From IMG/VR virus record IMGVR_UViG_3300044714_000024, positions 204 to 64,203 of that record: 64,000 bases of DNA; one strand, written 5' to 3'. The position numbers and the translations under genes were made by a program. Origin of the DNA: a virus. Lineage: Duplodnaviria > Caudoviricetes. Under the pieces are notes generated by a model. The model worked only from the letters and a program-made list of their open reading frames with translations. It searched no databases and was not told the DNA's origin. Shown here one piece after another: positions 3,897 through 58,510 of this stretch (position 1 is the first letter of the stretch; each line of letters starts with the position of its first letter).

Positions 3897-4628
3897 ATGC
3901 GAAGGATTCTGTTTGCTGCGATTGCGCTGAGTCTGAGTATACTGCCTGCTTGGGCGCAAAATACGACCGGGCTTGTTGTGGCGACCTGCGGCACCGTTGT
4001 AACGGCGTTCAAGGCTGGTAATCCCGGCCCATTTACCGTCGATGTGAACGGCAACCTCTGCCAGACTGGCGGTGGGGGTGGCGGCTCAGTAACTCAGGGG
4101 ACGACGCCTTGGGTCGATAATATCACGCAATGGGCGAGCGTAACGCTTGGCGCCGCGACGGCCTGGGGAACGGCGCCGACCGGCAACGTGCCCGGCGTGA
4201 ATGCAAATATTCTTGGCCCGCTCGGGCAGCAACTTTCGGCAGCCTCGATTCCTGTCGTGTTGCCCGCGGCGCAGATCACGACGCTGACGCCACCGACAAC
4301 GGTAACCGCGAACGGCGCGGCCAATGTCACCGCGACCGACTGCTCCGGCACGGTGGCTTCTGGCGGCACCGCACAAAATGCTTTCACCGCGCAGACGACG
4401 CTGCACGGCTTCACCATCGCCAACATTGACACTACCGAGCCGCTGTGGATTTCGTTCACGACGACGGCGGCAGCGTCTGGCGCCGGGAGTTACCCGCTGC
4501 CGGCCGCGACCGCGACGACGTTTGCGGGGTTCGGCTCATTCACGGCGCCGCCTGGCTTCGGTCTCAATCACGCGCTCTCGGTGATCGCGGCGACGACCAG
4601 CCATAAGTTTACCTGCACATGGTGGTAA
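3897..4628 (+). CDS. putative structural/appendage protein with signal peptide
   Basis: Leader MRRILFAAIALSLSILPAWA|Q; Thr/Ala/Gly-rich; small beta-sandwich-like C-terminus. Confidence 0.75.
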   Translation: MRRILFAAIALSLSILPAWAQNTTGLVVATCGTVVTAFKAGNPGPFTVDVNGNLCQTGGGGGGSVTQGTTPWVDNITQWASVTLGAATAWGTAPTGNVPGVNANILGPLGQQLSAASIPVVLPAAQITTLTPPTTVTANGAANVTATDCSGTVASGGTAQNAFTAQTTLHGFTIANIDTTEPLWISFTTTAAASGAGSYPLPAATATTFAGFGSFTAPPGFGLNHALSVIAATTSHKFTCTWW

Positions 4629-8161: not shown

Positions 8162-8839
8162 ATGGATGCCGCCCAAGATACCCTGAATCCGCCCAAACTC
8201 AAGACCTGTACGGCTTGCGGGATTGCGAAGCCGCTTGTTGAGTTTTTTCAAGATAAGCGCCGCAAGGAACCACGGGCTACCTGTAAAGAATGCGGCAAGG
8301 AGTACTATAGAGCTTGGTATCATCAGCGAGAAAATGCGCTGAACTTGGCTCGGGCTGCACAAAAGAAGAAAAAACAAGACCGGGAGTGGCAGGAAGTTCT
8401 AGATGGCGGTCGGGTTTGTGTTACTTGCGGAGAAAATAAACCAATCACGGAGTTTTTTAAGCATAGCCGTTCGTCGCGAGGATATAAGCGTATCTGTAAG
8501 GCTTGTGAAATAGCGGGACTCAAACGTTGGCGTCACGAAAATCCAGAGGACGCGAGAAAACGCGCAAGAGCGGCCCGCATTCGTATGGATTATGGAATGT
8601 CTACTCTTGAGTTTCAGGCGATGGTTGAAGCACAAGAAAACTGCTGTAAAATATGTGACAAAGAATTTCACCCGGACGGTGGTTATGCTGGCCCATATGT
8701 TGACCATAACCACTCGACAGGAAAAGTACGTGAACTTCTTTGTTTCGAGTGTAACAGCGGCTTGGGTCGTTTTAAGGATAATCCAGAATTGCTAAAGCGC
8801 GCAGCGTCCTATTTGGAAAAACATAAATCAGATGGATGA
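8162..8839 (+). CDS. endonuclease VII-family (His-Me finger) homing-type endonuclease
   Basis: Two C..C...KP..EF zinc-ribbon repeats, then Q...C.IC, VDHNH.TGKVR.LLC..CN.GLG.FKDN. More AT-rich than its flanks. Confidence 0.9.
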   Translation: MDAAQDTLNPPKLKTCTACGIAKPLVEFFQDKRRKEPRATCKECGKEYYRAWYHQRENALNLARAAQKKKKQDREWQEVLDGGRVCVTCGENKPITEFFKHSRSSRGYKRICKACEIAGLKRWRHENPEDARKRARAARIRMDYGMSTLEFQAMVEAQENCCKICDKEFHPDGGYAGPYVDHNHSTGKVRELLCFECNSGLGRFKDNPELLKRAASYLEKHKSDG

Positions 8840-9623
8840 TGTCACGATCAGTAATTTAGCCTTAGACGCCATAGGCGCGCGTTTCAGCCTTACGTCACTA
8901 CAGCCGCCGTTGCCGCCGCCCAATGCAGTAGTGGTCAGCCGGCGCTATCAGGTTACGATGGACAGTCTTTTTAGATCAGCGCATTGGAATTTTGCGAGAT
9001 TTCAGCGCCACGGCGTTGTACTGAAAGCCGCGCAAGGAACCCCGGAAAATCCCAACGGTACAACGCTACCAATTCCTCCTTATCCCTGGCAGTATGCCTA
9101 TCAATACCCCGCAGATTGTTTGCTCGCGCGTTATTTGCTCTGCAATCAGCCTTTGACGGGGAGTGGCAATCCATTTCCCGCAGGCGTGACGACAACGCCG
9201 CTGTGGCCGTTTGGCAATCCCGGTTATAAATTTGTGGTGGCGAACGATACGGATGTGGCAGGGAATCAAATAAAAGTTATTCTGACCGATCTGGAATTCG
9301 CGGATATTGTCTATACGGGGCGAGTGACGAACGTCGATCTTTGGGACGCTCACTTTCAGAACGCGGCGATTGCGACTCTTGGGGCGTGGTTGGTCAATCC
9401 TCTCGCTCGAAATGCAATAGTCCTCAAAGAGCAAATCGAGATCGCAACGTCGGTGGTGCAGTCGGCGCGAATCTCGGATGGCAATGAGGGAATTACTTCC
9501 ATAGATCACGTGCCCGATTGGATGGCCGTTCGTGGAATAACCGGCTACGGTCTCGGTTGGGACACGGCAATGTGTTATTACGGTTGGTCAAGTTTGGGAT
9601 TTCCTGGGGGCGGGTTTGTGTGA
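8832..9623 (+). CDS. tail adaptor / tail tubular protein A-like
   Basis: I.N.AL..IG, H.WNFA, W.YAY.YPADCL, D..F..A....L and AR..D..E motifs. Confidence 0.85.
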   Translation: MDDVTISNLALDAIGARFSLTSLQPPLPPPNAVVVSRRYQVTMDSLFRSAHWNFARFQRHGVVLKAAQGTPENPNGTTLPIPPYPWQYAYQYPADCLLARYLLCNQPLTGSGNPFPAGVTTTPLWPFGNPGYKFVVANDTDVAGNQIKVILTDLEFADIVYTGRVTNVDLWDAHFQNAAIATLGAWLVNPLARNAIVLKEQIEIATSVVQSARISDGNEGITSIDHVPDWMAVRGITGYGLGWDTAMCYYGWSSLGFPGGGFV

Positions 9624-12600
9624 ATGACAACGCCGATCATAAAATCGTCGTTCTCAAGCGGCGAAGTGTCGCCGTCATTATATGGTCGCGTGGATTTAGC
9701 GGGTTGGCATAAAGCCTGCTCCGTATCTCGTAATTTCTTTGTTTCATATAAAGGTGGATTACTGAGTCGCGGCGGCCTCGCTTATGTAGGGGTCTGCAAG
9801 CAAGCCGCTTCCGCAAGCTCCATTCCTCCGCGCAATATCGAATTCACGTTCAATATTTTCCAGTCGTATATCCTGGAATTCGGCGAACTCTATATGCGTG
9901 TGGTCGCCAATGGCGGCTATGTGACCGAGGCTGCGTTTACGGTTACGGGAGCGACGCAGGCCAATCCATGCGTGCTCACGATACCGGGACACAATTTCGT
10001 CGTCGGCGATTGGATTTTTCTTATCGGTCTCGGCGGCATGATTCAGTTGGATGCACGCACAGTCATTGTGCGCAGCGTCGCTGGAAATAATGTGACAATC
10101 GAGGATGTCTTTGGCGTTCCAATCAATTCTCTTGCCTATAATGCTTACACCGTGGGTGGAACGGCGGCGCGACTCTACACGCTGATCACGCCATATCACG
10201 CCATCGATCTGCCTTATCTAAAATACGTGCAAAGCGCCGACACGATGTCGCTGACCTGCATCAATCAGGCGACCCAGACCGAATACCAGCCGCAGGAATT
10301 AAGCCGTCTCGCTGCAAACAATTGGACCATAGCTCCACCAGCTTTTGCTGCGTCCATAGCTGCGCCGGCGACTTGTACGGTCACGGGGACCGCTTATTCG
10401 GCGGGGCCGGGGCCGGCGGCTTACGGGTATGTCGTTACGGCCATCGACAGCACGACCGGAGACGAAAGCGAGCCGTCTCCGATTGGCGTTGTTACGAACG
10501 TGGTGGATATTGCCGGGCAGTTCGGCACCAACACGGTCAGTTGGACCGCTGTACCCAATGCCGGGAGTTACAATGTTTATCGTGCCACGCCAGATTATAC
10601 CAACACAGGGAATTTTGCCGGGCAGTTATTTGGTTTTGTCGGTTCCTCCCGGTCGGTCACTTGGCAGGACACCAACATCATTCCCGACTTCACCACGACG
10701 CCGCCGGAACATCTTAATCCGTTTGCGCCGGGGCAGATCGTCAACGTTGGGACGATACCCGCGACGGGGGTGTTTGCCGCAGCAACTACGACGGCGGCGA
10801 TCAACACGACGACGGGATCGCAAGGAATCATCCAACCGATTGTCTCGGGTGGATTCGTGGTAGCGGGCAACGTCCTCAACGGCGGCCAAAAATACAGCCC
10901 CGGCGACACCGTGACGTTCACGGATTCCGGTTCGGGAGATACCGTGGTAGCCCCGCTCATCCTTGGTCCGCAGTCAGGAACTTATCCGGGTGTCACGGCA
11001 TACTTTCAACAACGGCGGACTTATGCGTTTTCGCTAATGGCGCCCGACACCTACGAAATGTCGCAGCCGGGATCGTATCTCAATTTCGATTCGGCCGATC
11101 CTCCCATTGATTCTGATGCGATCACGGGAACGCCGTGGGGCGAGCAGATCAACGGCATTCAGTGGATGCGGCCGATGCCGGGAGGGCTTGTTACGTTTAC
11201 GGGCGGTACGACGTGGCAAGTGTCTGGAACGTCCGGGGCTGGCTCGCCCATAACTCCCTCGCAACAGAACGCGCAAGCGCAGGAAGGCATTGGTTCCTCG
11301 CCGACGCTCGCGCCGATCCGAATCCGAAACAATCTGCTCTACGTCGATTCGCTCAATGGGTTCGTGAACGAGATCAATTATAATTTCTATTTCAACATCT
11401 ATACCGGGCAGGACATTACGCTTTTGTCGAGTCATCTGTTCCAGGACACGACTTTGGGGCAGTGGGCGCTTTCATTCAGTCCTTATCGGTTGATCTGGGT
11501 GGTCAGGAACGACGGCAAGATGCTGTCTCTGACTTACATCGCCGAGCAGGAAATGCGCGGTTGGGCGCGGCACGATACGCTCGGGTTGTTTGCGTCTGTC
11601 GCGGTCGCTTCGGAACCTCCGGTCAATGCGGCTTATTTCATCGTCAAGCGGTATGTCTCTGGCAAAGGCCAGTGGGTTTACATGCAAGAGCGCATGGACA
11701 ATCGGTTGTGGCAGAATGTGGAGCAGTCGTATTGCCTCGATAGTGCGCTTTCCCTTCCACAACCTGCGCCGAATGCGAATCTCGTGGCGTCTGCCGCAAA
11801 AGGTCCGGGTGGGGTGAAGCTTGGGGCCGTGATTCTTGGTGGCAATAGTTATTCGGCGACGCCGGCCGGGCAGATCGTCGATGACGCGGGAACCGGCTCG
11901 GGTGCCGTGGTGACGGCGTTCACCGTTGTTGGGGGCGTGATAACCGGCCTAACGATCACGCCCGGCATCAATTACCAGAAGCCGCGAATCATCGTCACGG
12001 ACGCGACGGGATCTGGTGCGGATATCTCCTTGGTGGTCGATAATACCGTGATGTTTACGGCGGATGGCGCCGTGTTCTCAGTGGCCAACAACGGGGCTGT
12101 GCTGCGCACGGGTGGGGGTATCGGAACCAGCGTCTTATACGTCTCCCCGACCCAGATAACCGCACAGGTGGCGCCGCAAGCGGCGATTGCGACCACGTTG
12201 CCGAACGATCCGAACAATATGCCGGCGCCGGCTGTGGCTGGGTCTTGGACTCTCACTCAGCCGATTACGACGGTTCTTGGGCTTGAGCATTTGGAAGGGA
12301 TGACGGTCAATGCGCTGTGCGACGGAACGCCGGTCGTGGGGCTTTTGGTGGTCAATGGGTCGGTGACTTTGCCAAATCCGGCGAGCCAGGTGCTTATCGG
12401 ACTTCCTTTCATCGCACAGGCACAGTCGATGCACGCCGACATGCCGGGTGAATTGATCCAGGGCAAGCGCAAGCGGATTCAAGGGGTGGCCGTGAGGCTC
12501 GCGAATTCTCGCGGCATCAAGCTCGGGCAGGATCAGCCTATCGCTGCTCAACAGCCGAATCAGATCGAGATTCCGTGGGATCAGGCGCCGAATCTGATGA

Positions 12601-12818
12601 CGCAACTCACGGAACCGAACGCGCTTGCGGGCGCGGGGAATGCCGTGCAGTTGTTCTCAGGTGACAAATACGTGGTGATCGCGGGGGATTATTCGACAAC
12701 GGATGGTCAGCCGTCGCCGGGCATGGTAGCGGTGGAGCAAGACCTTCCATTGCCTTGTGAAATACTGGCGTTCATTCCCGAACTGGAAGTGGGCGATACT
12801 GGCGATTCTCATGCTTAA
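9624..12818 (+). CDS. tail nozzle / tail tubular protein B-like
   Basis: 1064 aa; SF..GE.SP.L.GR.DL, Y.QSAD, YP....YFQQR, W.VR.DG, W.RH.T.G and GL.HLEG.TV motifs. Confidence 0.9.
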   Translation: MTTPIIKSSFSSGEVSPSLYGRVDLAGWHKACSVSRNFFVSYKGGLLSRGGLAYVGVCKQAASASSIPPRNIEFTFNIFQSYILEFGELYMRVVANGGYVTEAAFTVTGATQANPCVLTIPGHNFVVGDWIFLIGLGGMIQLDARTVIVRSVAGNNVTIEDVFGVPINSLAYNAYTVGGTAARLYTLITPYHAIDLPYLKYVQSADTMSLTCINQATQTEYQPQELSRLAANNWTIAPPAFAASIAAPATCTVTGTAYSAGPGPAAYGYVVTAIDSTTGDESEPSPIGVVTNVVDIAGQFGTNTVSWTAVPNAGSYNVYRATPDYTNTGNFAGQLFGFVGSSRSVTWQDTNIIPDFTTTPPEHLNPFAPGQIVNVGTIPATGVFAAATTTAAINTTTGSQGIIQPIVSGGFVVAGNVLNGGQKYSPGDTVTFTDSGSGDTVVAPLILGPQSGTYPGVTAYFQQRRTYAFSLMAPDTYEMSQPGSYLNFDSADPPIDSDAITGTPWGEQINGIQWMRPMPGGLVTFTGGTTWQVSGTSGAGSPITPSQQNAQAQEGIGSSPTLAPIRIRNNLLYVDSLNGFVNEINYNFYFNIYTGQDITLLSSHLFQDTTLGQWALSFSPYRLIWVVRNDGKMLSLTYIAEQEMRGWARHDTLGLFASVAVASEPPVNAAYFIVKRYVSGKGQWVYMQERMDNRLWQNVEQSYCLDSALSLPQPAPNANLVASAAKGPGGVKLGAVILGGNSYSATPAGQIVDDAGTGSGAVVTAFTVVGGVITGLTITPGINYQKPRIIVTDATGSGADISLVVDNTVMFTADGAVFSVANNGAVLRTGGGIGTSVLYVSPTQITAQVAPQAAIATTLPNDPNNMPAPAVAGSWTLTQPITTVLGLEHLEGMTVNALCDGTPVVGLLVVNGSVTLPNPASQVLIGLPFIAQAQSMHADMPGELIQGKRKRIQGVAVRLANSRGIKLGQDQPIAAQQPNQIEIPWDQAPNLMTQLTEPNALAGAGNAVQLFSGDKYVVIAGDYSTTDGQPSPGMVAVEQDLPLPCEILAFIPELEVGDTGDSHA

Positions 12819-22100: not shown

Positions 22101-22132
22101 AGGCTATCATGCAGAAAAGAACCGCCCCCTGA
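16154..22132 (+). CDS. large internal virion / DNA-ejection polyvalent protein
   Basis: ~1990 aa; TFFHESGH zincin-like motif, HEKFARGFE.YL.EG.AP, G.KPYSIK.G and P.RD.WGEP. TGATG coupling to the upstream gene. Confidence 0.85.
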   Translation: MQDVPAQQPTAAPVPQDVDTLFPEKGGAQDVDSLFPSSIEADRKAKAAGISHSPINDLIFGDKTVNPVARILDSFEQGFEQGWGTDRLGLSDESTEYLKKIGIFNDYQKGQASLVKTANEVLLRPAAVVLDAVIRRGLPAMFRGGQAVVQQVGEEVGAPNLAREIAALPEAFPTGLHGPVSGMPIPGLGLGESIRNTPGLVEAARNMRVIGAGERGWAGTGPVEAPKTEPVKIETVPQPVSGKPEQPSPMTPPPPVTAIEPEIITPDIHTAARQAAPDVFARYDTLKQQQDGLQKWLAEREAQGQSEPGVKAYLDGVNKELDELSPQVKAAYQQAAETTNAATVLPPVSQSWGMFPPPEVTGAPAKIDATHTVLSGANSTVDGTVVVDRSIPEFSPTLKTSVGESAPLHEFLAEHETTEAALMKDGMPYDQAHIRATAAERAKVEAAGVDWTAYTHEIDGYLNHVEHEPNTNPPTEPLHIDPQTAIGHHKSENKEGIAAAPATHPIEAQRDFIVNDVKRQLIAAGRPEAEAQAAGQLVAARYEARAARLGGARGSAEELYKAEGAQIRGPSGTAAPAPTGAPAIAPMPAAEAIPEDELTTIHIGHRAPRGPRAVPQERWSLLQFIADRGGIKADDKNIGDVRTIFGKDQKWIPGFGPLIRKDGMEIDRAREAAVEAGYIQDHGQSGVSSGEATSNIDTLLQAMDREERGNKVYRQGIEPTEASERVPDAAELEQHRAIQAELDTRIADYLKEVGIKPNEIEPSIFARMRELMDRQRLEPDIAHERAVMEADDHAVETENAPERTEYIPGWDVPDDTGAAQEARGATAQGEERPSGAGPRTDRDGDREKAWTEFYQRKRERDLIAEREVEGQQQIPGAEKITDAELAQRRANEPLKRTAEQKPMDVGLFGDEKDQQELFQQARGGIVLNPNAVPGHDYIGMENVRPLMRLTVEANASTFFHESGHHWLAELVRDAAHEAAPADLKADAKTVMDWLGLKGPQDLALGSDASRAAKIKATKAHEKFARGFEQYLREGVAPSPQLAGVFAKVKQWMLNIYQTIKGLGAPINDDIRAVFDRMLAEEPQRTVIAPEIVKRPDLQDIHESDAVLTEPHEAERAADRIQSEDARARAELPKDIADEHRGSAEKIGTSPSEPIPLGEDRGRPDTIGPGGAGSAQLGTEPPGGGHIVPQGAGLRTLEGGAGTIEPLPIGPHVPLDALPAAKMDKVGNIRLENLDSPAAVNDAIRTLYHENSAQLDAATRGVMSDQSIMDLADAMGVDPRIVANNMDRLRQMSVEDGVPLAARIWLMRDTFTKLAAEVSRTMQGTDEVAYAEARQRFLMAHETLSGITAEMGRGLRAFRTMKGATQSAEELAAVLKDATGKTLFQLQQEMTLGRAANTPAQIARMVQQAQLSWWQRVRSGVISYVINNLISGPITHLGYSIGNEVLQLWKAVPETAASAAVGAIRERFGTAEPGERVYFGEIGARLYGMMYGARDGIMPSYSALKTGVSVMKGDASGVDLFNSEIAYRPQQIPGRVGYVLETPSRLVAAIHTMHYAMNYEAEISAMAFRDAMKEGFDLGSAEFNQHMAEFRSNPPANAMQEAHDNALEMVLMKRPTFGSAQYHLQKAVNGNLFAKLVMPFLQIGTNILREGYVERTPFGALVSQDIRDNLYGKNGEVARQTQMGKIALGTGLATTVIGLTAQGILTDGGPSDPKQREVLEMTGWKPYSIKVGSEYIPYRKYMSALGPLVAGVSDMYAVGHHLSEEGLTKGAAAALFGFAEVVADETWMRGLADFIDAARHWDRDGGKFLRNFSMNFIPFSVGLRQVASMTDPVWRSVRSEMDALRAHIPGMSQTLHPIRDIWGEPMRGGTMMSWSPAVNDPATIALQKAEYYPARLPRKIRGVELTDQQYDDFTRIAGRDAKMRVNAMISNPGFNLIPQQHRQEMLRDVFAGKSSSKEMAETVIMMHSAGTPNDIMKQANDAKEAIMQKRTAP

Positions 22133-22299
22133 TGGCTGAAATTCGCCCGCCGATCACGCCAAGGAACGCGCCAGCCAAGACGCGACCGAGAGTGCGCCCG
22201 CTGCGGAAAGTAAAGGCGCCGTTTCTGCCGACCGAAAAACATCCCCACGGTTGGCTTGCTCATCATCGGATGAAGGCTGAGACTGGAAAGACCGAATGA
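22132..22299 (+). CDS. 55-aa basic hypothetical protein
   Basis: TGATG overlap upstream and ATGA overlap downstream; MAEIRPPITPR...KAETGKTE*. Confidence 0.55.
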   Translation: MAEIRPPITPRNAPAKTRPRVRPLRKVKAPFLPTEKHPHGWLAHHRMKAETGKTE

Positions 22300-24275
22300 A
22301 AAAAGCCGCCGGCCTCCTGCTCGCATTCCTCGGCCTTCTCATTTTAGGTGAGATCGTCGATCTGGCGTGGCTGGGTTATGTTCGCGCCACGGTGACGAGC
22401 GCGCAATCGTCCGTGGTGATCGGCGGCAACGGCTCTGTCACGAATTTCACATTCCCGTTTATTGGCGTCGCCTCCAACGACATTACGGTGATGTACACGG
22501 ACGCGAACGGCAATCAAACGACGCTCACGCCGAACACACAATACACGCTCACTCTCACTGCACCATTACCCGGAGCAATCTGGGGCCTCGGCGGCTCGGT
22601 CACATATCCCCTCGTTGGGTCTCCCATCGCGTCGGGGACCACGATTACCATCGCGCGGACGCTGCCCTATCTGCAAACCGTAAGCTCGAATCAGGGGCAG
22701 GCTTTCCCAACCGCGGTCGAAGCGGCGCTTGATCTACTGGCGATGCAGATTCAACAGGTCGATGCGTTGTTTGGGCGTGGGATTGCGATCCCGGTTTCCG
22801 ATAGCTGCGGCAATCTTGCGGCTTTGCCGGCGGCGGCACAACGAGCGAATCAGGTATTAGGCTTCGATGCGACTGGCTGCATCCCGGTCGCGGTTTCATC
22901 TTTGCCGGCAGGTACGGTTTCCTCGGCGATGCAGCCCGTGGTTAACGCGCCTACGATTGTGGCGGCGCGAGCAGGCCTTGGGCTAGGAAGCGCCGCGACG
23001 GAAAACGTCGGCTCTTATGGACTCGCTGACGATGGAGCAGGAAATTTAAGGCAGACTTTTATAACAGTTTCGGATTCAGGCTCCCAAAGCGTCACGTCGG
23101 CATTTCAACTCAATCAAAGAATCTGCTCCGGGCCGATCACCTATACCTTGCCGCGAGCAAATACATTGTGGAATGGATTTGGGTTCTGGATTTACTCCAT
23201 TTCAGGAATCTGCACGATCACGCCAAATGCTGCGGATAACTTTCCGGGCGTAGCTTCCGGTACGGCAATTACGATTGCCGCAGGCTCGTGGGCCTGGATC
23301 AGCACCAACGCGGCATCGACGGGAACGTGGTGGCTCGATGCTCATGGACCGTCGAATGGAAGTCTCGCAGCGGTTGCGAGCGGTAATGCTTTGACGATCA
23401 CATATTCGGGTGGACCGCTGCGATTCCGCGACAACACGCTGGCGAACGGCGATTCATTGTGGGCCATCCCGACAGGGGCGCTCGGCATCACTATCCCGCA
23501 AGGAGCAACGCTTGGAACATCAAGCAGCAATGTGCCATTTCGTATCTGGATATTTGCGGCGTACAATAGCGGCACGCCTATCCTGGGGGTAGCAACTTGT
23601 TCCTCTGCGACGCAGATTTATCCGTGCAAGGTATGGATGACACAGCGCAAGACCGGAACGGCAATTACCGCAGGAGCGACAAGCCCTGGAACGCTCTACA
23701 CATCTGCGGCGGATTCAAACGATAGCATTATCATCTTAGGTTATGCCGATTATGCGTCCGGGCTCGGAACGGCAGGAACATATGCCACTGCGCCCACCAC
23801 GTTGCAATCTTTTGTGGTCGGAGTTCCGGGTCCGGGAGAGGTCGTACAGACTATCGCGCCAGCGCCAATCACAACCACAACGTCATGCCAGACAACACAA
23901 ACCCAAACGACAATTACCGCCGCGATTAGTCTGCAAGGTCCCAACCTCGTAAGACTTCACGCGGGTGTTGCGGGTGTGATTGGTTCTGGACACAATATTT
24001 CGTTACGCTTTTCAAGGGGCGCTGGCCCCACGCTGTTCGGTGCGGCTCCTTTGCTCTCTATAGCATCTGGGGCTTTTACCTTTTTTACGTTTTTTGAAGC
24101 CATGGATGCGCCGCCGAGTGGTGGCACGCTCACGTACTATGTCTATTGCGCATCGGATGTAAACTCGGCGGCGACGGCAGGCGGCTCAAATGGCAGTTCG
24201 CTTATAATTGAAGAAATCATGGGAATGCTTGAACCCACAAACGACAATGAACTTTCTCTAACGAAAGTCGGATGA
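22296..24275 (+). CDS. tail fibre protein (podovirus fibre attachment domain) preceded by signal peptide
   Basis: After MKKAAGLLLAFLGLLILG...VRA| comes TVTS......GNG..T.F.FPF...GG.VTYP...G.TITI.R.LP..Q...NQG...P..VE.ALD.L.MQIQQ. Confidence 0.85.
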   Translation: MKKAAGLLLAFLGLLILGEIVDLAWLGYVRATVTSAQSSVVIGGNGSVTNFTFPFIGVASNDITVMYTDANGNQTTLTPNTQYTLTLTAPLPGAIWGLGGSVTYPLVGSPIASGTTITIARTLPYLQTVSSNQGQAFPTAVEAALDLLAMQIQQVDALFGRGIAIPVSDSCGNLAALPAAAQRANQVLGFDATGCIPVAVSSLPAGTVSSAMQPVVNAPTIVAARAGLGLGSAATENVGSYGLADDGAGNLRQTFITVSDSGSQSVTSAFQLNQRICSGPITYTLPRANTLWNGFGFWIYSISGICTITPNAADNFPGVASGTAITIAAGSWAWISTNAASTGTWWLDAHGPSNGSLAAVASGNALTITYSGGPLRFRDNTLANGDSLWAIPTGALGITIPQGATLGTSSSNVPFRIWIFAAYNSGTPILGVATCSSATQIYPCKVWMTQRKTGTAITAGATSPGTLYTSAADSNDSIIILGYADYASGLGTAGTYATAPTTLQSFVVGVPGPGEVVQTIAPAPITTTTSCQTTQTQTTITAAISLQGPNLVRLHAGVAGVIGSGHNISLRFSRGAGPTLFGAAPLLSIASGAFTFFTFFEAMDAPPSGGTLTYYVYCASDVNSAATAGGSNGSSLIIEEIMGMLEPTNDNELSLTKVG

Positions 24276-24598
24276 CGATGCCCGAACCCTTGATCCAGCA
24301 AAACCAGATTATCCCGATTGCTAGTCCGGTTTTTACGTCGGTCGCTCTGACCGGGGCGAACAGTCCGAGTGTCATCGGTCCGAACGCACAGCGACGCGGG
24401 ATCACGTTTGCAAATCCCTCCGCGACACAGACGATATATATTGCGCCTGCGGGCAGTCCGATTGCCGTGGGGCAAGGTATTCCGCTCTTTCCGGGAGCAA
24501 CATATTCGGTGATGGCGCAGGGTAACTTTCAGATCAATTGCGGATGGCAGGCTATCGCAAGCGGCGCGTGCAATCTCAGCATTCTGGAATTTGTCTGA
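24272..24598 (+). CDS. small beta-sandwich structural protein
   Basis: N..R.G..F.N......YI......GI.L.PG pattern; overlaps both neighbouring genes. Confidence 0.65.
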   Translation: MTMPEPLIQQNQIIPIASPVFTSVALTGANSPSVIGPNAQRRGITFANPSATQTIYIAPAGSPIAVGQGIPLFPGATYSVMAQGNFQINCGWQAIASGACNLSILEFV

Positions 24599-26358
24599 TG
24601 AAGAAGATTCTGCTAGTCTTGGCATTTCTGTTTGCTGCGGCAGTCCCGGCGGCAGCGCAGGGATGTGGTCCGCAGAATCCGAATTGCATTGTACCGACTG
24701 CGCCGCCAGGGACGAGCGATAATCGCGCGGCTTCTACGGCGTTCGTGGAGAATGCCGTAACGGCGGCGCCGATAACCTCAGCGCAACTTGATGCCATCTG
24801 TTCTACCAATAACGAGTTTTTGATTCGCGTTACAGGCACTTGGCAGTGCGGCACATTCAGCGGTCAATTCAGCGTTGGCAGCACGCTCAGTATTGCAAGC
24901 TTGGCGTGGAGTCTGATCACCGGCACGCCTACAACGCTCGCAGGCTACGGCATCACGAATGCCCGCCCCCAACTTTCAAATGCGCTGACCATCTATGTCA
25001 ACGGGAATAGCACGTCAGCGACATGCCAACCCAGTAGTGCAACGCCGGCAACTTGTGCTGCCGGGAACGATAGCAACAATTGCCTGACGCCAGCGACGGC
25101 GTGCTTGACTCTGGCGCGGGGCCTCATCGCGGCTCGAAGCGTCGACGAGGCGGGATTTCAAATCACCATCGTCCTTGCCTATACGACGGCGGGGAGCGCT
25201 GGCGCACTGAATTATGGCGGCACGTTTGCTCTTGGCCCGGCCATCGGAGCGCAAGGCCCCGGCGGCAATGCATTGTTCATTACAGGCGATCTTAATTCGC
25301 CCGCATCCGTCAGCATAACGGCGCCGAATACTGGGCTGCTCGATGGCATCTACGCCAGCGACGGATTCGTAGGACGCTTGTCATACGTTCAACTTGATAA
25401 TCAAAGCGCCGCGTCGGACGGCCTTCGCGTCGGGCAGATGGCCATTGTTGACCTTCTTGGTGTGACGTGCGGAGCGTCCTGGACGGGCACTGCGGGCTCC
25501 TGCCTTTACTTGGAGAAGGGCGGCGTTATGAACGGCGCCGGCTCCCCGATGCTGACCTTGGCCGGATGTGGTGCATTTGCTCTGCAAATGACGGGCGGCA
25601 TTTTCAACGCCGCCGACATATCCAATCCCGGCACGCCCAGGACCATAGCCATTCCGTCAGCTATTGCGTGTGGTGTTTCAACCGTTGTGGCGACGGGCAA
25701 TTCGGAACTTCTCGGCTTTACCAACAATACCTTCACGGGCTCTGGTGTTGCAGGAACGACGGGCACGCGCGCCATTCTCGCGGGCGCGGCCTATGTGAAT
25801 TATTCCGGCGCAAGCTCCGTCAACTCGATCTTTCCCGGCAATGTCAATGCAACAATTCAGGACGCGGCGACAACAAATCACGCGGGCGACACGCGAACTG
25901 TGCCACTTCCGGTAGCGAGCGGTGGCACCGGCGTCTCGACTACTCCCGGTATTCAAGCCATCGCCGCTGGGGAGTTCATCAATTTTATAGCTAGCGGCGT
26001 CAACTTCAACTCAGCAAACACCGACACGGCTATCCCTATAACACTGCCGACTGGCTATACCCGTTATATTGTTTTCCAGGTACAGATAAGCGGCGCCAGT
26101 GCGTCAATCAGCACGGCGACCTTTGGTGTTTTCTCAGCAGCGGGCGGGACCGGTACGGCTTGGGTTGCGAGCGGCACGGCCATTTCCGTGGTAAGTGCTA
26201 GTGATGCAACCACGAATAATTATCAGTCAACGAATGCGTCAGCAGGTTCAGCGAGTTTTTTGGTCGCTAATACGCCTAACATTTACTTCCGGGTCGTGGG
26301 AGCACAGGGATCACCGGCGACCGCCAACGTAATCATTAGTGTAAAGCCGTCGCCGTAG
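24598..26358 (+). CDS. tailspike/fibre-like protein with signal peptide
   Basis: Leader MKKILLVLAFLFAAAVPAAA|Q; PTAP.G.S...AASTAFV, I.G.PTTLAGYGIT.A and IYV....GND.N.CL...AC.T motifs, then a beta-helix-like region. Confidence 0.82.
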   Translation: MKKILLVLAFLFAAAVPAAAQGCGPQNPNCIVPTAPPGTSDNRAASTAFVENAVTAAPITSAQLDAICSTNNEFLIRVTGTWQCGTFSGQFSVGSTLSIASLAWSLITGTPTTLAGYGITNARPQLSNALTIYVNGNSTSATCQPSSATPATCAAGNDSNNCLTPATACLTLARGLIAARSVDEAGFQITIVLAYTTAGSAGALNYGGTFALGPAIGAQGPGGNALFITGDLNSPASVSITAPNTGLLDGIYASDGFVGRLSYVQLDNQSAASDGLRVGQMAIVDLLGVTCGASWTGTAGSCLYLEKGGVMNGAGSPMLTLAGCGAFALQMTGGIFNAADISNPGTPRTIAIPSAIACGVSTVVATGNSELLGFTNNTFTGSGVAGTTGTRAILAGAAYVNYSGASSVNSIFPGNVNATIQDAATTNHAGDTRTVPLPVASGGTGVSTTPGIQAIAAGEFINFIASGVNFNSANTDTAIPITLPTGYTRYIVFQVQISGASASISTATFGVFSAAGGTGTAWVASGTAISVVSASDATTNNYQSTNASAGSASFLVANTPNIYFRVVGAQGSPATANVIISVKPSP

Positions 26359-26485: not shown

Positions 26486-27038
26486 ATGACCGATGCAACA
26501 ACTGCCCTGGCCGATCCGCACTTCGCTGCCTGTTGGCCCTTTACTTTAATCCAGGAACGCCCGCTGCCGAACGATTGGAGCAACCGGCGAAATTTCTCCA
26601 ATGACGCGCACGATCCCGGCGGCGAAACGATGTGCGGCATCATTCAACGGGAATATGATCAGTACCGCAAAAGCAAAGGACTACCGCTGCAAGACGTGAG
26701 CAAGATCAGCCGCGATGAAGGCGCCGACATCTACTACAATTCATATTGGTTGCCGGAATGCGCGAAGCTACCGCCGGGTCTCGATTTGCAGTTTTTCGAT
26801 GAAGCTGTGAACGCCGGGCCCGGCGCGGCCACGCTGATCCTACAACGCGCGCTCGGTATCACGGCCGATCGGATGTGGGGATCGATCTGAAACCGATGCC
26901 GCAGTTAAGGGCATCACAAACATCGCTGGCACTATCAACGCCTTCACCAATAATCGCGAGGCGTACTATCGCGGGCTGCGCGTCTTCCAATACTTCGGCA
27001 AAGATTTGATTAGGCGCTCGGCCGCCCCAAGCATTTGA
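26486..27038 (+). pseudogene. GH108-family endolysin, frameshifted
   Basis: SND.HDPGGET.CGI, IY...YW and FD.AVN.G motifs. The GATCGATC duplication at 26880-26887 causes the stop at 26890; the C-terminal domain (R.AYYRGL..F..FGKD..RR) continues in another frame to 27038. Confidence 0.8.
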
Positions 27039-29095: not shown

Positions 29096-29183
29096 GCAGA
29101 CTCAATCTAAAACTGTGATGTTGTAATTTAGTCACGACTTTATCTGCTAGGCGTATGGCGTAACTTCAACATTGGAGAGACTC

Positions 29184-29993
29184 ATGCGCAAACTGTTTCT
29201 GGGGACTGTGGCGCTTATTGCGCTTTCTGTTCCTGCATATGCGGCAGATATGGCTCTGAAGGCCACTCCCCCGCCTGCCCCTGCCGGTTCCGGCTGGTTC
29301 GTCGGTATTCTCACTGAGGCCGATGTCGCTCAATCGAATGTCAGCGGTACGAACGTCTTTGCTACAAGCCTCGCCAGCGGCAATCTGACGGCCACTGGTG
29401 GCTCTGTCGGCGGTCGCGTTGGCTTTATCGGCGGCGGCCAACTCGGTTGGTACAGAGGGCTCCTGACCGGCGCTTGGGCCAATATCTCCGGTAACAACAG
29501 CGTTGGCGCGACGGCAACCACAAGTGCCGCAAGCGCGGCCATCGCCAGCCGATGGAGCTCGACCCAGGAATTCGATATTGGCGTCGAGTGGTTGCAACGC
29601 ATCACTGCGGCTCTGCCGACGTTGGGCAACATCAATCTGTTCCCGGCCATCACACCGATCACCCCGACCGTTCCTGTTGGGGCACCAAAGCAATACATCG
29701 GCGTTGGCCTCAAGGAAGCCGGGATCAGTGGGTCATTCGGTGCGGCGTCGGGTACGCAAGTCGGCATCTATCCGATAGTCACTGGTGGCTTCATCTGGCC
29801 CACGCTCGGCGCCAATGGTTTGCCCAATGGGGGCGCCATCGATGCCTCTGCCGGTGTCGCGTTTCCCGTGAAAGGTTTCACGATGAATAACGCCTTCGCC
29901 ACCAACGGTGCTCCGCTCACGTTCGGCGCCGGTGCAAATCTCGGAACGCAGTATTGGACGCGGCTGAGCTACGATTTTGCCGTGAGTAAGTAA
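29184..29993 (+). CDS. outer-membrane beta-barrel protein (Omp25/RopB-like moron)
   Basis: Signal peptide AYA|ADMALKATPPP..GSGWFVG; C-terminal strand RLSYDF. Confidence 0.8.
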   Translation: MRKLFLGTVALIALSVPAYAADMALKATPPPAPAGSGWFVGILTEADVAQSNVSGTNVFATSLASGNLTATGGSVGGRVGFIGGGQLGWYRGLLTGAWANISGNNSVGATATTSAASAAIASRWSSTQEFDIGVEWLQRITAALPTLGNINLFPAITPITPTVPVGAPKQYIGVGLKEAGISGSFGAASGTQVGIYPIVTGGFIWPTLGANGLPNGGAIDASAGVAFPVKGFTMNNAFATNGAPLTFGAGANLGTQYWTRLSYDFAVSK

Positions 29994-31372: not shown

Positions 31373-31447
31373 TGGTGCCCAAGGAAGGATTCGAACCCAC
31401 GACCAACGGTTTACAAAACCGCTGCTCTACCGCTGAGCTACTCGGGC
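31373..31447 (-). tRNA. tRNA-Thr(TGT)
   Basis: Cloverleaf GCCCGAG...GCGGT-TTTGTAA-ACCGT...CTTGGGC-A-CCA; T-stem imperfect. Confidence 0.9.
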
Positions 31448-31458
31448 GTTCCACAAAA

Positions 31459-31535
31459 TGGTCGGAGAACTACGATTCGAACGTAGAACCCTCTGCTCCC
31501 AAAGCAGATGCTCTACCAGGTTGAGCTATTCTCCG
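31459..31535 (-). tRNA. tRNA-Pro(TGG)
   Basis: CGGAGAA...TCTGC-TTTGGGA-GCAGA...TTCTCCG-A-CCA; C1-G72 and A73. Confidence 0.93.
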
Positions 31536-31555
31536 AAACTCATTCAACTCCTATT

Positions 31556-31633
31556 TGGTCGGGGCTAACTGGATTTGAACCAGCGACCTTCGGCTCTGCA
31601 AGCCGACGCTCTACCGGACTGAGCTAAGCCCCT
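31556..31633 (-). tRNA. atypical tRNA, anticodon GCA (Cys) on a Pro-like body
   Basis: TCGGC-TTGCAGA-GCCGA arm; D and T arms normal; acceptor irregular, ending GACCA. Confidence 0.75.
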
Positions 31634-56004: not shown

Positions 56005-56684
56005 GGCAAATCGGACTCGAAACGAATCAGCGTCATGGTGCACTGCACAATCCAGCGCATGAGATTTTTGCGCGAGAGGTCGTCGAAGCTCTGCTGAGTT
56101 CCGACCCAAATGTGCGCCGTAATGCCCGGAAAGTAGGCTACGAGCGCGCCGGCTATCCAGGCAACAAGCACAACGCGCGCCGGCTGGCAAATTCTCCGGT
56201 CGTCAAGAAGCGCATCAAACATCTGTTCGAGGAAGCAATCGCCTTCCGCGACGTGCGCTTGGCAACCGTCGTCATGCGAATCGACCGAGTGGGCAAGGCT
56301 CGGCTCCCCGACTACTTCGAGCCCGTGCTTGACCAAGACGGCAACCGCACCGGCCGCTACACCCTCAAAGACATCACGGCGCTGCCGTCGGAACTGAGCG
56401 AAGCCCTGGCCTCAATTGAGTGGGACGACGAAGGGCGACCCAAGATCAAGCTGCACGACAAGAATCAGGCGAATTTCACGCTCTTGAAGAATCTCGGCGG
56501 CTTGCCGCAAGATGATGAACCCGATAAAGTTCCAGCGACGACGAACAATTACAATTTCTTCGCGGGTCTCAGTGTCGAAGATCAACGCACTCTTGCCGAT
56601 GCTCTCGACGCTCTCCCCGGAGGGCCGGAAACTATTGAGCACGAAGCTGCGCGAGAACATAGCGAAGCAGGCGCCGTTCCGTAA
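56001..56684 (+). CDS. terS: terminase small subunit
   Basis: L.NP.HE.FA, Y..AGY, NA.RL...P.V..RI and KIKLHDK motifs; upstream of TerL. Confidence 0.85.
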   Translation: MRQIGLETNQRHGALHNPAHEIFAREVVEALLSSDPNVRRNARKVGYERAGYPGNKHNARRLANSPVVKKRIKHLFEEAIAFRDVRLATVVMRIDRVGKARLPDYFEPVLDQDGNRTGRYTLKDITALPSELSEALASIEWDDEGRPKIKLHDKNQANFTLLKNLGGLPQDDEPDKVPATTNNYNFFAGLSVEDQRTLADALDALPGGPETIEHEAAREHSEAGAVP

Positions 56685-57393
56685 GCTGTATTCGTTTTAC
56701 CCGGACAAAGGACCGCTGAGGCGGGAGCTTTACGACCGTCACATGGCGTTCTTTTGTGCTGGCGGTCAGCACGATCCAATCGAGACTTGGTGCCCCGAGG
56801 AATGCGACGGCTCGCCGCATCGTGAGCGCCTTGCGCTGTGCGCCAATCGAATAGGCAAGAGCATGGGCATGGGCGGCTACGAACTGGCGATTCACGCAAC
56901 TGGCCGCTATCCGTCGTGGTGGCCAGGTTATAGGTTCGACCATCCGATTGAAGCGTGGGCTGCAGGTAAGACCAACGAGACGACGCGCGATATTATTCAG
57001 CGTGAGGTTTTGTTTGGTCCGGTCAAATGGAACGGGCGATCAAAGACTGTCGCTGGCACCGGGTTAATACCAGCCGAAGATATTGGAGATATTACTTGGA
57101 AGCGCGGTATTCCTGATTTCATCGATACTGTGCAGGTCAAGTCGCAATTCGGTGGGTGGTCGTCAATCGGTCTCAAGAGCTACGAGCAAGGGCGCGGCGC
57201 TTTCGAGGGAACCGCAAAAGATTTGGCGTGGCTGGATGAGGAACCACCACTCGATATTTACACGGAATGCTCGATCCGCTTGATGACGCGGCGTGGCTTG
57301 GCTATGATGACATTCACGCCGTTGGAAGGTATGTCGGACGTGGTGCAGGCGTTCTTGCCTGGTGGACGTTTGCCTGGTGACGCGGAATTTTAG
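56599..57393 (+). CDS. terL: terminase large subunit, N-terminal ATPase part (P22-like); start codon uncertain
   Basis: Walker A ANRIGKS, H.TG.YP.WW.G.RF, KSYEQGR..F.G, Walker B WLDEEP, motif III TFTP. Confidence 0.92.
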   Translation: MLSTLSPEGRKLLSTKLRENIAKQAPFRKLYSFYPDKGPLRRELYDRHMAFFCAGGQHDPIETWCPEECDGSPHRERLALCANRIGKSMGMGGYELAIHATGRYPSWWPGYRFDHPIEAWAAGKTNETTRDIIQREVLFGPVKWNGRSKTVAGTGLIPAEDIGDITWKRGIPDFIDTVQVKSQFGGWSSIGLKSYEQGRGAFEGTAKDLAWLDEEPPLDIYTECSIRLMTRRGLAMMTFTPLEGMSDVVQAFLPGGRLPGDAEF

Positions 57394-57693
57394 ATGATCG
57401 AACGCTTTCTCCCACGAAAATATCACTGGGCAATAATCTGGAACGATATCGTGCGGACAACTCCGATGCCGAAAAAGCCGAACGTCCGACTTTTGGAACT
57501 GCGCGCCAAAGCATTAAAATTGAGCGGATGGCCGTTCGCGATTTTTCGCGTGCCATGTGTAGAGCCAGTAAAACGCAAACATGGCAACGGTTCGCAGTGG
57601 ATTGCTCATCGCTTCCCAATCAAGAGTGGGATCACTTGGTGCGATGTGATGCTGATCGAGGCATCTAGGCCGAATCCTTTTATTGTAAGGTGA
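57394..57693 (+). CDS. hypothetical protein inserted between TerL halves
   Basis: 99-aa ORF starting immediately after the TerL-N stop and ending 7 bp before TerL-C. Confidence 0.55.
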   Translation: MIERFLPRKYHWAIIWNDIVRTTPMPKKPNVRLLELRAKALKLSGWPFAIFRVPCVEPVKRKHGNGSQWIAHRFPIKSGITWCDVMLIEASRPNPFIVR

Positions 57694-57700
57694 CTGCGAC

Positions 57701-58510
57701 GTGAGCGAACCACCCTCCCTATCGTCTGGCTCCCCCGAAGAAGTCATAGCGAAGCGTTCGCGTTTTGTGGTCATGGCCGGTTGGAGTAATGCGCCTCACT
57801 TAACCCCAGAAATGATAGCGGAAGAAAAATCCCGCATCCCGCCCCACGAATTCGAAGCACGCTCGCTCGGCAAACCATCGTTAGGTCAAGGTGCGGTCTA
57901 TCCAGTTCCAGAATCCGAAATTCTCTGCGATCCCTTCGTCATTCCCGATTGGATGCCGCAGTGCTATGCGCTCGACGTGGGTTGGAAACGAACCGCTGCG
58001 CTATGGGGCGCATGGGACCGCGATAACGATGTGGTCTATCTTTACGGCGAACACTATCGAGGGCAAGCGGAGCCTCCTATTCATGCCGCTGCGATTCGCG
58101 CTCGGGGCTTGTGGATTCCCGGCGTGATCGATCCCGCAGCGCGGGGGCGCGGTCAGAAAGACGGTGCACAACTGCTCACGATCTACCAAAATGATCTTGG
58201 CCTTAATCTCACCCAAGCCGATAATGCGCTCGAAGCCGGTATAGTTGCGGTCTGGCAACGGCTCACGACGGGACGGCTGAAAGTGTTTCGGTCGCTGGTC
58301 AATTGGATCAAGGAATATCGATTCTACCAGCGTGACGAACACGGGCGAATCAAGGACGGACAAGCCGACCACTTGATGGACGACACGAGATACCTCATCA
58401 TGTCCGGGTTGAGCGTTGCGTGTGTGCGGCCGGCGGATCAGTGGACTACAGGTAAATCACAAGTCGCATGGCAAGCCGAGTATGACCCCCTCGCCTACCA
58501 ACAACGATAG
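57701..58510 (+). CDS. terL: terminase large subunit, C-terminal lid + RNase H-like nuclease part
   Basis: W...PHL, EARS.G.P.LG.G.VYP, ALDVGW, IDPAARGR.Q.DG and DHLMD.TRY motifs; AAGGTGA RBS before GTG. Confidence 0.92.
   Translation: MSEPPSLSSGSPEEVIAKRSRFVVMAGWSNAPHLTPEMIAEEKSRIPPHEFEARSLGKPSLGQGAVYPVPESEILCDPFVIPDWMPQCYALDVGWKRTAALWGAWDRDNDVVYLYGEHYRGQAEPPIHAAAIRARGLWIPGVIDPAARGRGQKDGAQLLTIYQNDLGLNLTQADNALEAGIVAVWQRLTTGRLKVFRSLVNWIKEYRFYQRDEHGRIKDGQADHLMDDTRYLIMSGLSVACVRPADQWTTGKSQVAWQAEYDPLAYQQR

Follow-up and report, generated by a model that had tools for sequence, protein, structure and literature searches.

The phage record IMGVR_UViG_3300044714_000024 of IMG/VR (Duplodnaviria; Caudoviricetes) is 64,203 bp long, has direct terminal repeats and a completeness rating of 100%, and its bases 204-64203 make up the stretch of 64,000 nucleotides analysed here, called the window in what follows. 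The gene at 22296-24275 encodes a predicted tail fibre that starts with a 31-residue leader of the export-signal kind, and the tail-attachment domain begins with the very next residue. In the reading preferred here, to which a probability of roughly 60% is given, the fibre is made as a Sec-type precursor that is exported, cleaved at VRA/T, folded under oxidising conditions and attached to particles at lysis. The regeneration of the start of a docking domain at the cut site suggests a fibre that is folded outside the cytoplasm, and this is undescribed for tailed phages. The features of the gene on which the argument depends are the following.

22296-24275, forward strand: precursor of a tail fibre or receptor-binding protein (RBP), 659 aa; open reading frame (ORF) with matches to PHROG tail families
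22296-22388, forward strand: leader, residues 1-31, with M-K-K, core A4-G18, conserved E19..D22-L-A-W-L and V29-R30-A31
22386-22391, forward strand: predicted signal-peptidase I junction Ala31/Thr32; homologue alignment and -3/-1 pattern
22389-22673, forward strand: D1 beta-sandwich, residues 32-126, tail-attachment domain; AlphaFold2 (AF2), Foldseek and phmmer
22392-22394, forward strand: in-frame GTG (Val33, codon +2), a possible, non-conserved internal start
22704-22778, forward strand: neck helix, residues 137-161, including ALDLLAMQIQQ; AF2
22806-22880, forward strand: Cys171 (22806-22808) and Cys195 (22878-22880), a putative disulfide; co-occurrence

The junction between leader and docking domain

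The fibre ORF opens with MKKAAGLLLAFLGLLILGEIVDLAWLGYVRA, directly followed by TVTSAQSSVVIGGNGSVTNFTFPF; after MKKAAGLLLAFLGLLILGEIVDLAWLGYVRA it reads TVTSAQSS..GGNGSVTNFTFPF, and ALDLLAMQIQQ comes further on. A phmmer search with residues 1-178 against 1.84 billion cluster representatives gave 8276 matches at E<=1e-3, and in the top 150 of these the usual alignment sets residue 32 of the query on residue 2 of the matched protein. In the set obtained by pooling phmmer matches with 77 from a word-indexed search (n = 209), the Thr equivalent to Thr32 is residue 2, behind Met1, in 142 homologues, while about nine others have a short extension that is not hydrophobic and whose last residue is L, V or I; from their sequences these look like mis-called starts. 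The same arrangement is seen in the DNA of 47 leaderless viral loci: a start codon stands directly before the Thr in 42 of them (ATG 30, GTG 9, TTG 3), and in the remaining five the start is 1-4 residues from it.

Because Thr32 aligns with residue 2 of the leaderless homologues, Ala31 takes the place of Met1. The PHROG fibre/spike profiles lead to the same point, since their matches begin at profile positions 3-13 and at fibre residues 33-43, which puts profile position 1 at about residue 31. A comparison with 50,697 deposited phage records gave nine matches, all from query residue 32 or later and eight of them exactly at 32, and no cultured phage with a leader was found among these records. 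Thus, a domain that begins at its own Met1 is not what the window gene encodes, given its 31-residue leader, and is what would be left after the predicted cleavage.

The initial annotation had placed the attachment domain directly after VRA and had held that in related podoviruses this domain usually starts at Met1. Both statements agree with the alignments, and so does the cut that it called for, as VRA/T fits the -3/-1 rule and would regenerate the normal fibre start. The junction is in fact a stronger argument than could be seen at that time, because a small-x-small motif stands at this position in all 52 leader-bearing proteins and in the 16 leader-bearing loci described below.

The attachment domain and its genomic setting

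Is the domain behind the leader truly one that docks on a tail? The homology to fibre attachment domains that had been proposed for it receives concordant support from PHROG, from the tailspike Dpo31 and from Foldseek. Eight PHROG families of tail fibres, spikes or tail proteins match the fibre at E values from 1e-18 to 1e-5, the best being phrog_1640 at 1.2e-18; neither the fibre nor the second fibre-like ORF discussed later has a match in Pfam. In a sequence search of the PDB, residues 32-191 matched Dpo31, the tailspike of Cobetia phage Carin1 (E 2.7e-12), and, with Thr32 counted as 1, query positions 11-128 align with chain positions 12-124, so that Thr32 corresponds to chain residue 2.

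The AF2 model of residues 1-240, built from a 44-sequence alignment, has a mean predicted local distance difference test score (pLDDT) of 80.6. In this model the strands of D1 run from residues 32-43 to residues 116-126, with the first one starting at Thr32, and the blocks of D1 mostly score 85-96, with 78 over residues 31-40. The best Foldseek match is 8ck1_B, the fibre chain in the Carin-1 tail assembly (E 1.2e-8), the next is the LME-1 portal-tail complex, and 9efk_AE is found at E 2.4e-4. Weaker matches, at E ~1e-2 with probabilities near 1, are the fibre N-termini in the tail complexes of T7, PhiM1, Kp7/Kp9, HRP29 and P-SCSP1u; the T7 chains 7ey9 and 7boz are thus retrieved at E values of only ~1e-2. 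On this basis D1 is the tail-attachment domain of podovirus fibres and tailspikes, and its physical docking is predicted. Passages of a published study place D1 at the base of the virion (PMC13317679).

The neck helix that follows contains the near-invariant residues E142, D146, M150, Q153 and Q154 and is probably the start of a trimeric coiled coil. Beyond it the protein is far less constant: identity with the two closest relatives, L002 and L003, is ~92% over residues 1-240 as against 81% and 73% over the whole protein, and such a contrast between the N-terminus and the rest is typical of RBPs in which the N-terminal part has to match the tail. The full-length fold has a mean pLDDT of 71, and its C-terminal part (residues 260-645) is all-beta, with weak Foldseek matches (TM <0.2) to jelly-roll capsid or RBP-like structures; neither a fold nor an enzymatic activity is assigned to it.

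The surroundings of the gene are those of a T7-like structural module, with profile matches in the window to a portal (PF12236) and a major capsid protein (PF20911), and with internal virion proteins (phrog_308, phrog_418 and a 739-aa protein with a lysozyme domain). The internal virion proteins are followed by a 2011-aa protein, a 55-aa ORF and then the fibre gene, which is the gp17 position of such modules. The docking domain has a single match in the whole 64,203-bp genome, so that the fibre gene is its only carrier. Three further genes matter for what follows.

8832-9623, forward strand: tail tubular A/adaptor-like gene (phrog_394)
9624-12818, forward strand: tubular B/nozzle-like gene (phrog_376)
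22132-22299, forward strand: very basic 55-aa ORF, present with the same overlap in L002 and L003; partial conservation in L006

The adaptor-like and nozzle-like products (8832-12818) are the expected docking partners of the fibre, and neither has a signal peptide or an N-terminal hydrophobic segment; the capsid gene likewise lacks a leader. In T7 the fibre binds at the interface of adaptor and nozzle. A complex model of the adaptor with three copies of fibre residues 32-175, from which the nozzle (1064 aa) was left out, gave a score of 0.00 at a mark of 0.32 and is evidence neither way. Tubular B is only ~30% identical to its counterparts in cultured Pseudomonas and Caulobacter podophages, for which reason the lineage is regarded as uncultured; the contigs that carry close fibre homologues are about 62-65 kb long.

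These surroundings bear on one explanation in which the protein would have little to do with tails, namely that it is a captured cellular adhesin, similar to the MAT fibres of Bdellovibrio, displayed on the infected cell. The likeness is real in that, according to passages of the MAT fibre study, in each of the 21 MAT fibres a ~130-aa beta-rich domain comes directly behind a signal peptide, within a long trimeric fibre (PMC10769870). However, MAT fibres are encoded by the bacterium and shown on its own surface or on a vesicle, whereas the window gene is part of a tailed-phage structural module, at the gp17 position and coupled to the genes of internal virion proteins. In addition, D1 matches the fibre chains of phage tail complexes, while the N-domain of MAT fibres was compared by architecture only; a captured adhesin is accordingly considered very improbable.

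Leaders among the relatives

Leaders in front of this domain are not peculiar to the window. They were found in 62 of 249 distinct N-domains, proteins and loci together, a fraction that is biased upward because the samples were drawn with a leader-bearing query. All are hydrophobic and 19-46 residues long, and they fall into 30 long leaders of a "DLAWL" type and 32 short, classical ones; about half of the 62 are textbook Sec signals. The long type ends in the motif (E/A)..D-L-x-W-L....(R/K)-A; MKLLRIFLALFLLALPAHA and MRTLRTILVLLLLALAAPLAQA, each running up to the cut site, are examples of the short type.

The composition around the junction is strikingly uniform. Of the 52 protein leaders, 51 have Ala and one has Gly at position -1; at position -3 there is A in 25, V in 21, S in four, G in one and T in one, and 51 have Thr at +1. 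The same pattern holds for the viral loci, 16 of 63 of which bear a leader, with endings such as ADS, AGA, AHG and ATA, and in none of the 52 proteins and 16 loci does even one extra residue separate the small-x-small motif from the Thr. One protein, P0076, has a signal-like leader that falls below the hydrophobicity threshold and is hence counted as leaderless.

Long and short leaders occur on closely related proteins, since P0081 and P0082 are sisters of P0039 and P0099 with a support of 98, and the two types look, from their sequences, like indel variants of one another. On a FastTree phylogeny of the N-domain the leader state changes at least 12 times, whereas shuffled labels need 55.6 changes on average and never fewer than 50; as the tree is unrooted and built on ~150 columns, these changes are read as gains and losses together. 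Leaders are therefore recurrent and precisely placed in this fibre family.

The leader of the window fibre and its translation

The leader of the window fibre has a basic n-region (K2, K3) and an uncharged, Leu-rich h-region (A4-G18), and its predicted cut is preceded by small residues at -3 (V29) and -1 (A31). With Lys/Arg residues ahead of the hydrophobic core, the positive-inside rule would put the mature part in the periplasm, and the -3/-1 rule would have signal peptidase cut after VRA.

Three other kinds of export signal were considered and rejected. Signal-arrest-release (SAR) domains are weakly hydrophobic, rich in Gly, Ala and Ser, and devoid of a cut site, whereas the core of the window leader is Leu-rich, with 9 of 15 residues being Leu, Ile or Phe, and is followed by the V-R-A motif. 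A lipoprotein signal would need a lipobox Cys, and residue +1 is Thr; a twin-arginine (Tat) signal does not fit an n-region without RR.

Another question is whether the leader is translated at all. Over its 31 codons the window differs from L002 and L003 by 9-11 synonymous and 2-5 non-synonymous changes, and over the 147 codons of the N-domain, in a similar way, by 42-45 and 7-10, respectively; judged by these counts, the leader is translated and under purifying selection. The TGA of the 55-aa ORF overlaps the ATG of the fibre gene (ATGA) in all three genomes, and the ATG of this small ORF itself overlaps the stop of the 2011-aa gene (TGATG). These overlaps suggest that the small ORF is coupled in translation on both sides, to the 2011-aa gene and to the fibre.

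It had been stated that no alternative start codon lies at the junction. This stands for the interior of the leader, where codons 2-31 of the window contain no ATG, GTG or TTG, and for the flanks of the cut, where codons -1 (GCC) and +1 (ACG) are not starts either, but the statement had missed the in-frame GTG at codon +2. A conserved start codon within the leader or at its end, the finding that would have spoken against a leader altogether, was not seen, and the leader codons are under selection.

Could virion fibres nevertheless be made from the GTG at Val33, the leader being an annotation artefact or the longer form absent or minor? The presence of this codon at 22392-22394 is what such a dual start would rely on. 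In the two closest relatives, though, the codon is GTC (L002) and GTT (L003), a GTG is found at this position in only two of the 16 leader loci (L010 and L014), and no Shine-Dalgarno-like motif precedes it in the window. Together with the purifying selection on the leader and the coupling of its ATG to a conserved upstream ORF, these observations leave an internal start with a next to negligible likelihood.

Cysteines

If the fibre folds in the periplasm, its cysteines may tell. DsbA oxidises consecutive cysteines. Among proteins of at least 350 aa, mature fibres have a mean Cys content of 1.32% in the leader forms as against 0.755% in the leaderless ones (46 vs 136 proteins). The count of cysteines is even in 50 of 57 leader forms vs 85 of 168 leaderless forms. 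When the C-terminal parts were clustered for Cys parity, they chained into a single large group, from which no statistic was drawn.

The positions of these residues are also informative. Cys171 and Cys195 occur together in 29 of 29 sequences, 28 of them leader-bearing; the other is P0012, an N-terminally truncated sister of a leader form, encoded on a 2.6-kb contig. An alternative pair, 189/200, co-occurs in 15 of 15 sequences, all leader forms and none leaderless, and the pair 277/306 is found complete in eight sequences and as a single residue in one. Conversely, the unpaired Cys columns of leaderless forms (in 41 and 51 sequences) are absent from leader forms. In the 21 homologues that share the C-terminal part of the window fibre, the neighbouring pairs 408/415, 435/444, 506/510 and 531/618 come and go together; the window fibre has 277/306, 435/444 and 531/618 as further neighbouring pairs. 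This pairing in the company of a leader fits disulfide folding in the periplasm, as far as residue patterns can indicate it.

As a separate observation, three tRNA genes (Thr-TGT, Pro-TGG and Cys-GCA) lie at 31373-31632 on the reverse strand, adjoining a 542-aa ORF of phrog_1735, whose function is unknown. A tRNA-Cys carried by the phage is notable beside its Cys-rich exported proteins.

A second family with predicted export signals beside the fibre

The gene that comes after the fibre encodes another protein with a predicted export signal.

24598-26358, forward strand: second fibre-like protein with a classical signal peptide (…AAA/QGCGPQNPNC…); ORF and homologues

Its family carries an N-terminal module, QGCGPxNPNC followed by IVPTAPxGT..N.AASTAFV, and the QGCG..NPNC part is near the N-terminus in 102 of the 120 homologues listed. 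A test for a hydrophobic leader was passed by 100 of these 102 module carriers, with leaders of 16-28 aa (median 20) and Ala at -1 in 93, and the other two also begin with a short hydrophobic stretch, signal-like in one of them. The C-terminal parts are very diverse and include pectate-lyase-like domains. Since a conserved N-terminus with a variable C-terminus is expected of RBPs, the QGCG family looks, on sequence, like a group of exported receptor-binding proteins. A sequence search of the PDB gave no match for the window member, and its atlas matches, which score 0.86 or less, serve as leads only.

By a heuristic criterion, a large signal-bearing ORF directly follows the fibre in 13 of 17 leader loci (the 16 and the window); among the 47 leaderless loci such a neighbour was found only in L012, L017 and L018.

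The proposed route and its rivals

How could an exported fibre end up on a tail? In a first step, the basic N-terminus would stay in the cytoplasm and the 628-residue mature part would be threaded through SecYEG; in a second, signal peptidase I would cut after V-R-A and leave Thr32 N-terminal. Because methionine aminopeptidase removes Met before Thr and thus trims Met-Thr starts, fibres with and without a leader would mature to the same Thr end. Folding and trimerisation would come third, in the oxidising periplasm and with disulfides Cys171-195, 277-306, 435-444 and 531-618. Finally, the fibre would meet particles assembled in the cytoplasm, DNA-filled and without fibres, only as the holin opens the inner membrane or directly after lysis, and D1 would dock onto the adaptor/nozzle. 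We infer actual export and cleavage, as well as incorporation into the virion, and the strength of the claim differs from step to step: export, cleavage and oxidative periplasmic folding are judged likely, while attachment at holin opening or after lysis, also inferred, is the weakest step and is put a little below an even chance.

Several points weigh against this account. The phage is uncultured and known here from sequence alone, and signal peptides were called by their n/h/c pattern and by the -3/-1 rule. The leader is atypically long: from the end of the uncharged core to the cut site there are ~13 residues, among them E19 and D22, the acidic residues that the initial annotation had described downstream of the h-region. 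To our knowledge, the assembly of tailed phages is cytoplasmic, and, as adaptor, nozzle and capsid have no leaders, the last step needs an assembly route that is undescribed. The association of leader and cysteines is strong and, by the data at hand, not separable from shared ancestry: the N-domain tree offers five independent pairs, for which sign tests give a median p of 0.5 to 1. In L012, L017 and L018 a leaderless fibre, with its start codon directly before the Thr, lies beside signal-bearing ORFs of the QGCG type or similar; in these loci one partner would be cytoplasmic and the other exported, so that export of the fibre and of its neighbour is not strictly coupled. Last, the window leader, which is modelled as one helix of membrane-spanning length, could be a signal anchor.

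This last point deserves attention of its own. As an uncleaved type II anchor, the leader would keep the fibre tethered to the inner membrane on its periplasmic side, either until lysis or permanently, in the latter case for exclusion or receptor masking. Its length and the acidic residues after the core agree with such a role, and so does the single helix predicted for residues 2-28 (pLDDT ~91 over residues 1-20 and 69 over 21-30). The window leader and the 29 other long leaders have a median of 13 residues, two of them acidic, from the first uncharged run to the cut site, as against the classical c-region layout of 22 short leaders, and the conservation of E..DLAWL in 30 leaders suggests a function beyond targeting. 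On the other hand, a small-x-small motif stands right at the junction in every leader read, never with a spacer, and proteins with long leaders are sisters of others with textbook cleavable signals at the same junction. Geometry is a further obstacle: between the end of the leader helix and the first D1 strand, the AF2 model leaves no more than three non-helical residues, VRA, so that without cleavage the docking domain would be held against the membrane, and an anchored trimer could hardly dock on a tail. An anchor, although plausible for leaders of the long type, is, on balance, unlikely.

Export and cleavage could also be correct and the virion wrong, if the mature fibre masked or modified the receptor, serving superinfection exclusion or keeping progeny off debris, as a moron-like product of a former structural gene. 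Export as such separates the fibre from the particles being assembled, and other exported proteins are encoded nearby, including one resembling outer-membrane proteins. Yet this would leave a complete genome with its sole docking-domain gene diverted to another use, D1 lies in the best-conserved part of the protein (~92% over residues 1-240), and a free protein would have no need for the exact regeneration of an N-terminus. A role outside the virion is thus regarded as improbable, and a fibre that is exported, cleaved and then docked remains the preferred reading.

Relation to known systems

Like Dpo31 of Carin-1 and the N-terminus of T7 gp17, the window fibre has a D1 beta-sandwich, homologous to theirs, and then a helix, and it shares with leaderless podovirus fibres the position after the internal virion proteins as well as the conserved N-terminus and variable C-terminus. 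Unlike Dpo31 and T7 gp17, which begin with Met1 and then Thr, it has a 31-residue export signal and paired cysteines.

Filamentous phages offer a precedent for virion proteins with cleavable signal peptides that are assembled outside the cytoplasm, in pVIII and pIII. These phages assemble wholly at the membrane, by extrusion, whereas the window phage has a portal, a terminase and a T7-like tail, and the morphogenesis of tailed phages is, in textbooks, wholly cytoplasmic. A parallel in timing is found in endolysins that use the host Sec system before lysis as late proteins, Lys44 of fOg44 and, of the SAR type, those of phiKMV and JG068 (gp47), as far as passages of two articles describe them (PMC8878798, PMC3765740). 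However, such endolysins are lysis enzymes that act on the envelope and not parts of virions, and the window fibre is predicted to be a virion part.

A search of full-text literature, with subscription journals and supplementary files outside its scope, turned up no case of a signal peptide on a fibre or tailspike of a tailed phage; the articles consulted concerned endolysins, spanins, or host pili in a study of archaeal viruses and their hosts. Passages of one preprint explain the lack of a signal peptide in the P22 tailspike by cytoplasmic morphogenesis.

Should attachment after export be true, the assembly route would be categorically new, and the last step of assembly could happen across the inner membrane or after its loss. 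It would account for the way in which phages of soil bacteria could come by oxidatively stabilised RBPs and would connect phage fibres with the exported fibre adhesins of cells. There would also be a practical side, as such RBPs would need periplasmic expression with DsbA for structural work or phage engineering.

Lysis, host and other predicted exported proteins

The lysis enzyme of the window phage is encoded just downstream of the second fibre-like protein.

26486-26890, forward strand: GH108 endolysin (PF05838, phrog_315)

This endolysin has no signal, no SAR domain and no hydrophobic segment. Endolysins without an export signal rely on a holin that makes large openings in the inner membrane, and a hole-forming holin is therefore expected here.

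As for the host, the second RBP has a homologue named from a Pseudolabrys metagenome-assembled genome, and an adaptor homologue, P0439, 48-49% identical, lies on a 575-kb contig of Bradyrhizobium sp. RT9a. The region of this contig is probably a prophage relative and the best lead to a culturable host. A scan of genome contigs gave two metagenome-bin contigs only, neither of which indicates a host. On sequence relationships, the host is probably a diderm of the Hyphomicrobiales. The broadest statement that can be made is that a podophage lineage of ~62-67 kb exports its RBPs, the D1 fibre and the QGCG family, by Sec, with disulfide folding in the periplasm, assembly from two compartments at holin opening and hosts that are probably Hyphomicrobiales such as Bradyrhizobium; it is offered tentatively and taken to be somewhat more doubtful than not.

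Exported proteins are encoded elsewhere in these genomes as well. The product of 29172-29993 resembles the outer-membrane beta-barrels of Pseudomonadota, with an atlas score of 0.95 that is a lead only and no Pfam match, and is likely a moron; it also counts among the leads to a diderm host. A protein with a signal peptide is encoded among the head genes, at 3897-4628, and its mature form would start with QNTTGL; it matches nothing in Pfam or the PDB and belongs to phrog_22789, of unknown function. The same motif follows the signal of large ORFs near the fibre in two other loci (L014:18090-19694 and L036:11397-12878). In L002, an ORF upstream of the fibre (674-1123) has a twin-arginine-like signal start (…NRRSFFIGAAAG…).

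Finally, the large terminase subunit of the window looks split, with Terminase_6N at 56512-57393 and Terminase_6C at 57701-58510 in another frame. Between the two lies a 99-aa ORF (57394-57693), in frame with Terminase_6N and without a match. The arrangement could be due to an intron, an intein or a mobile insert, or could be a genuine split.

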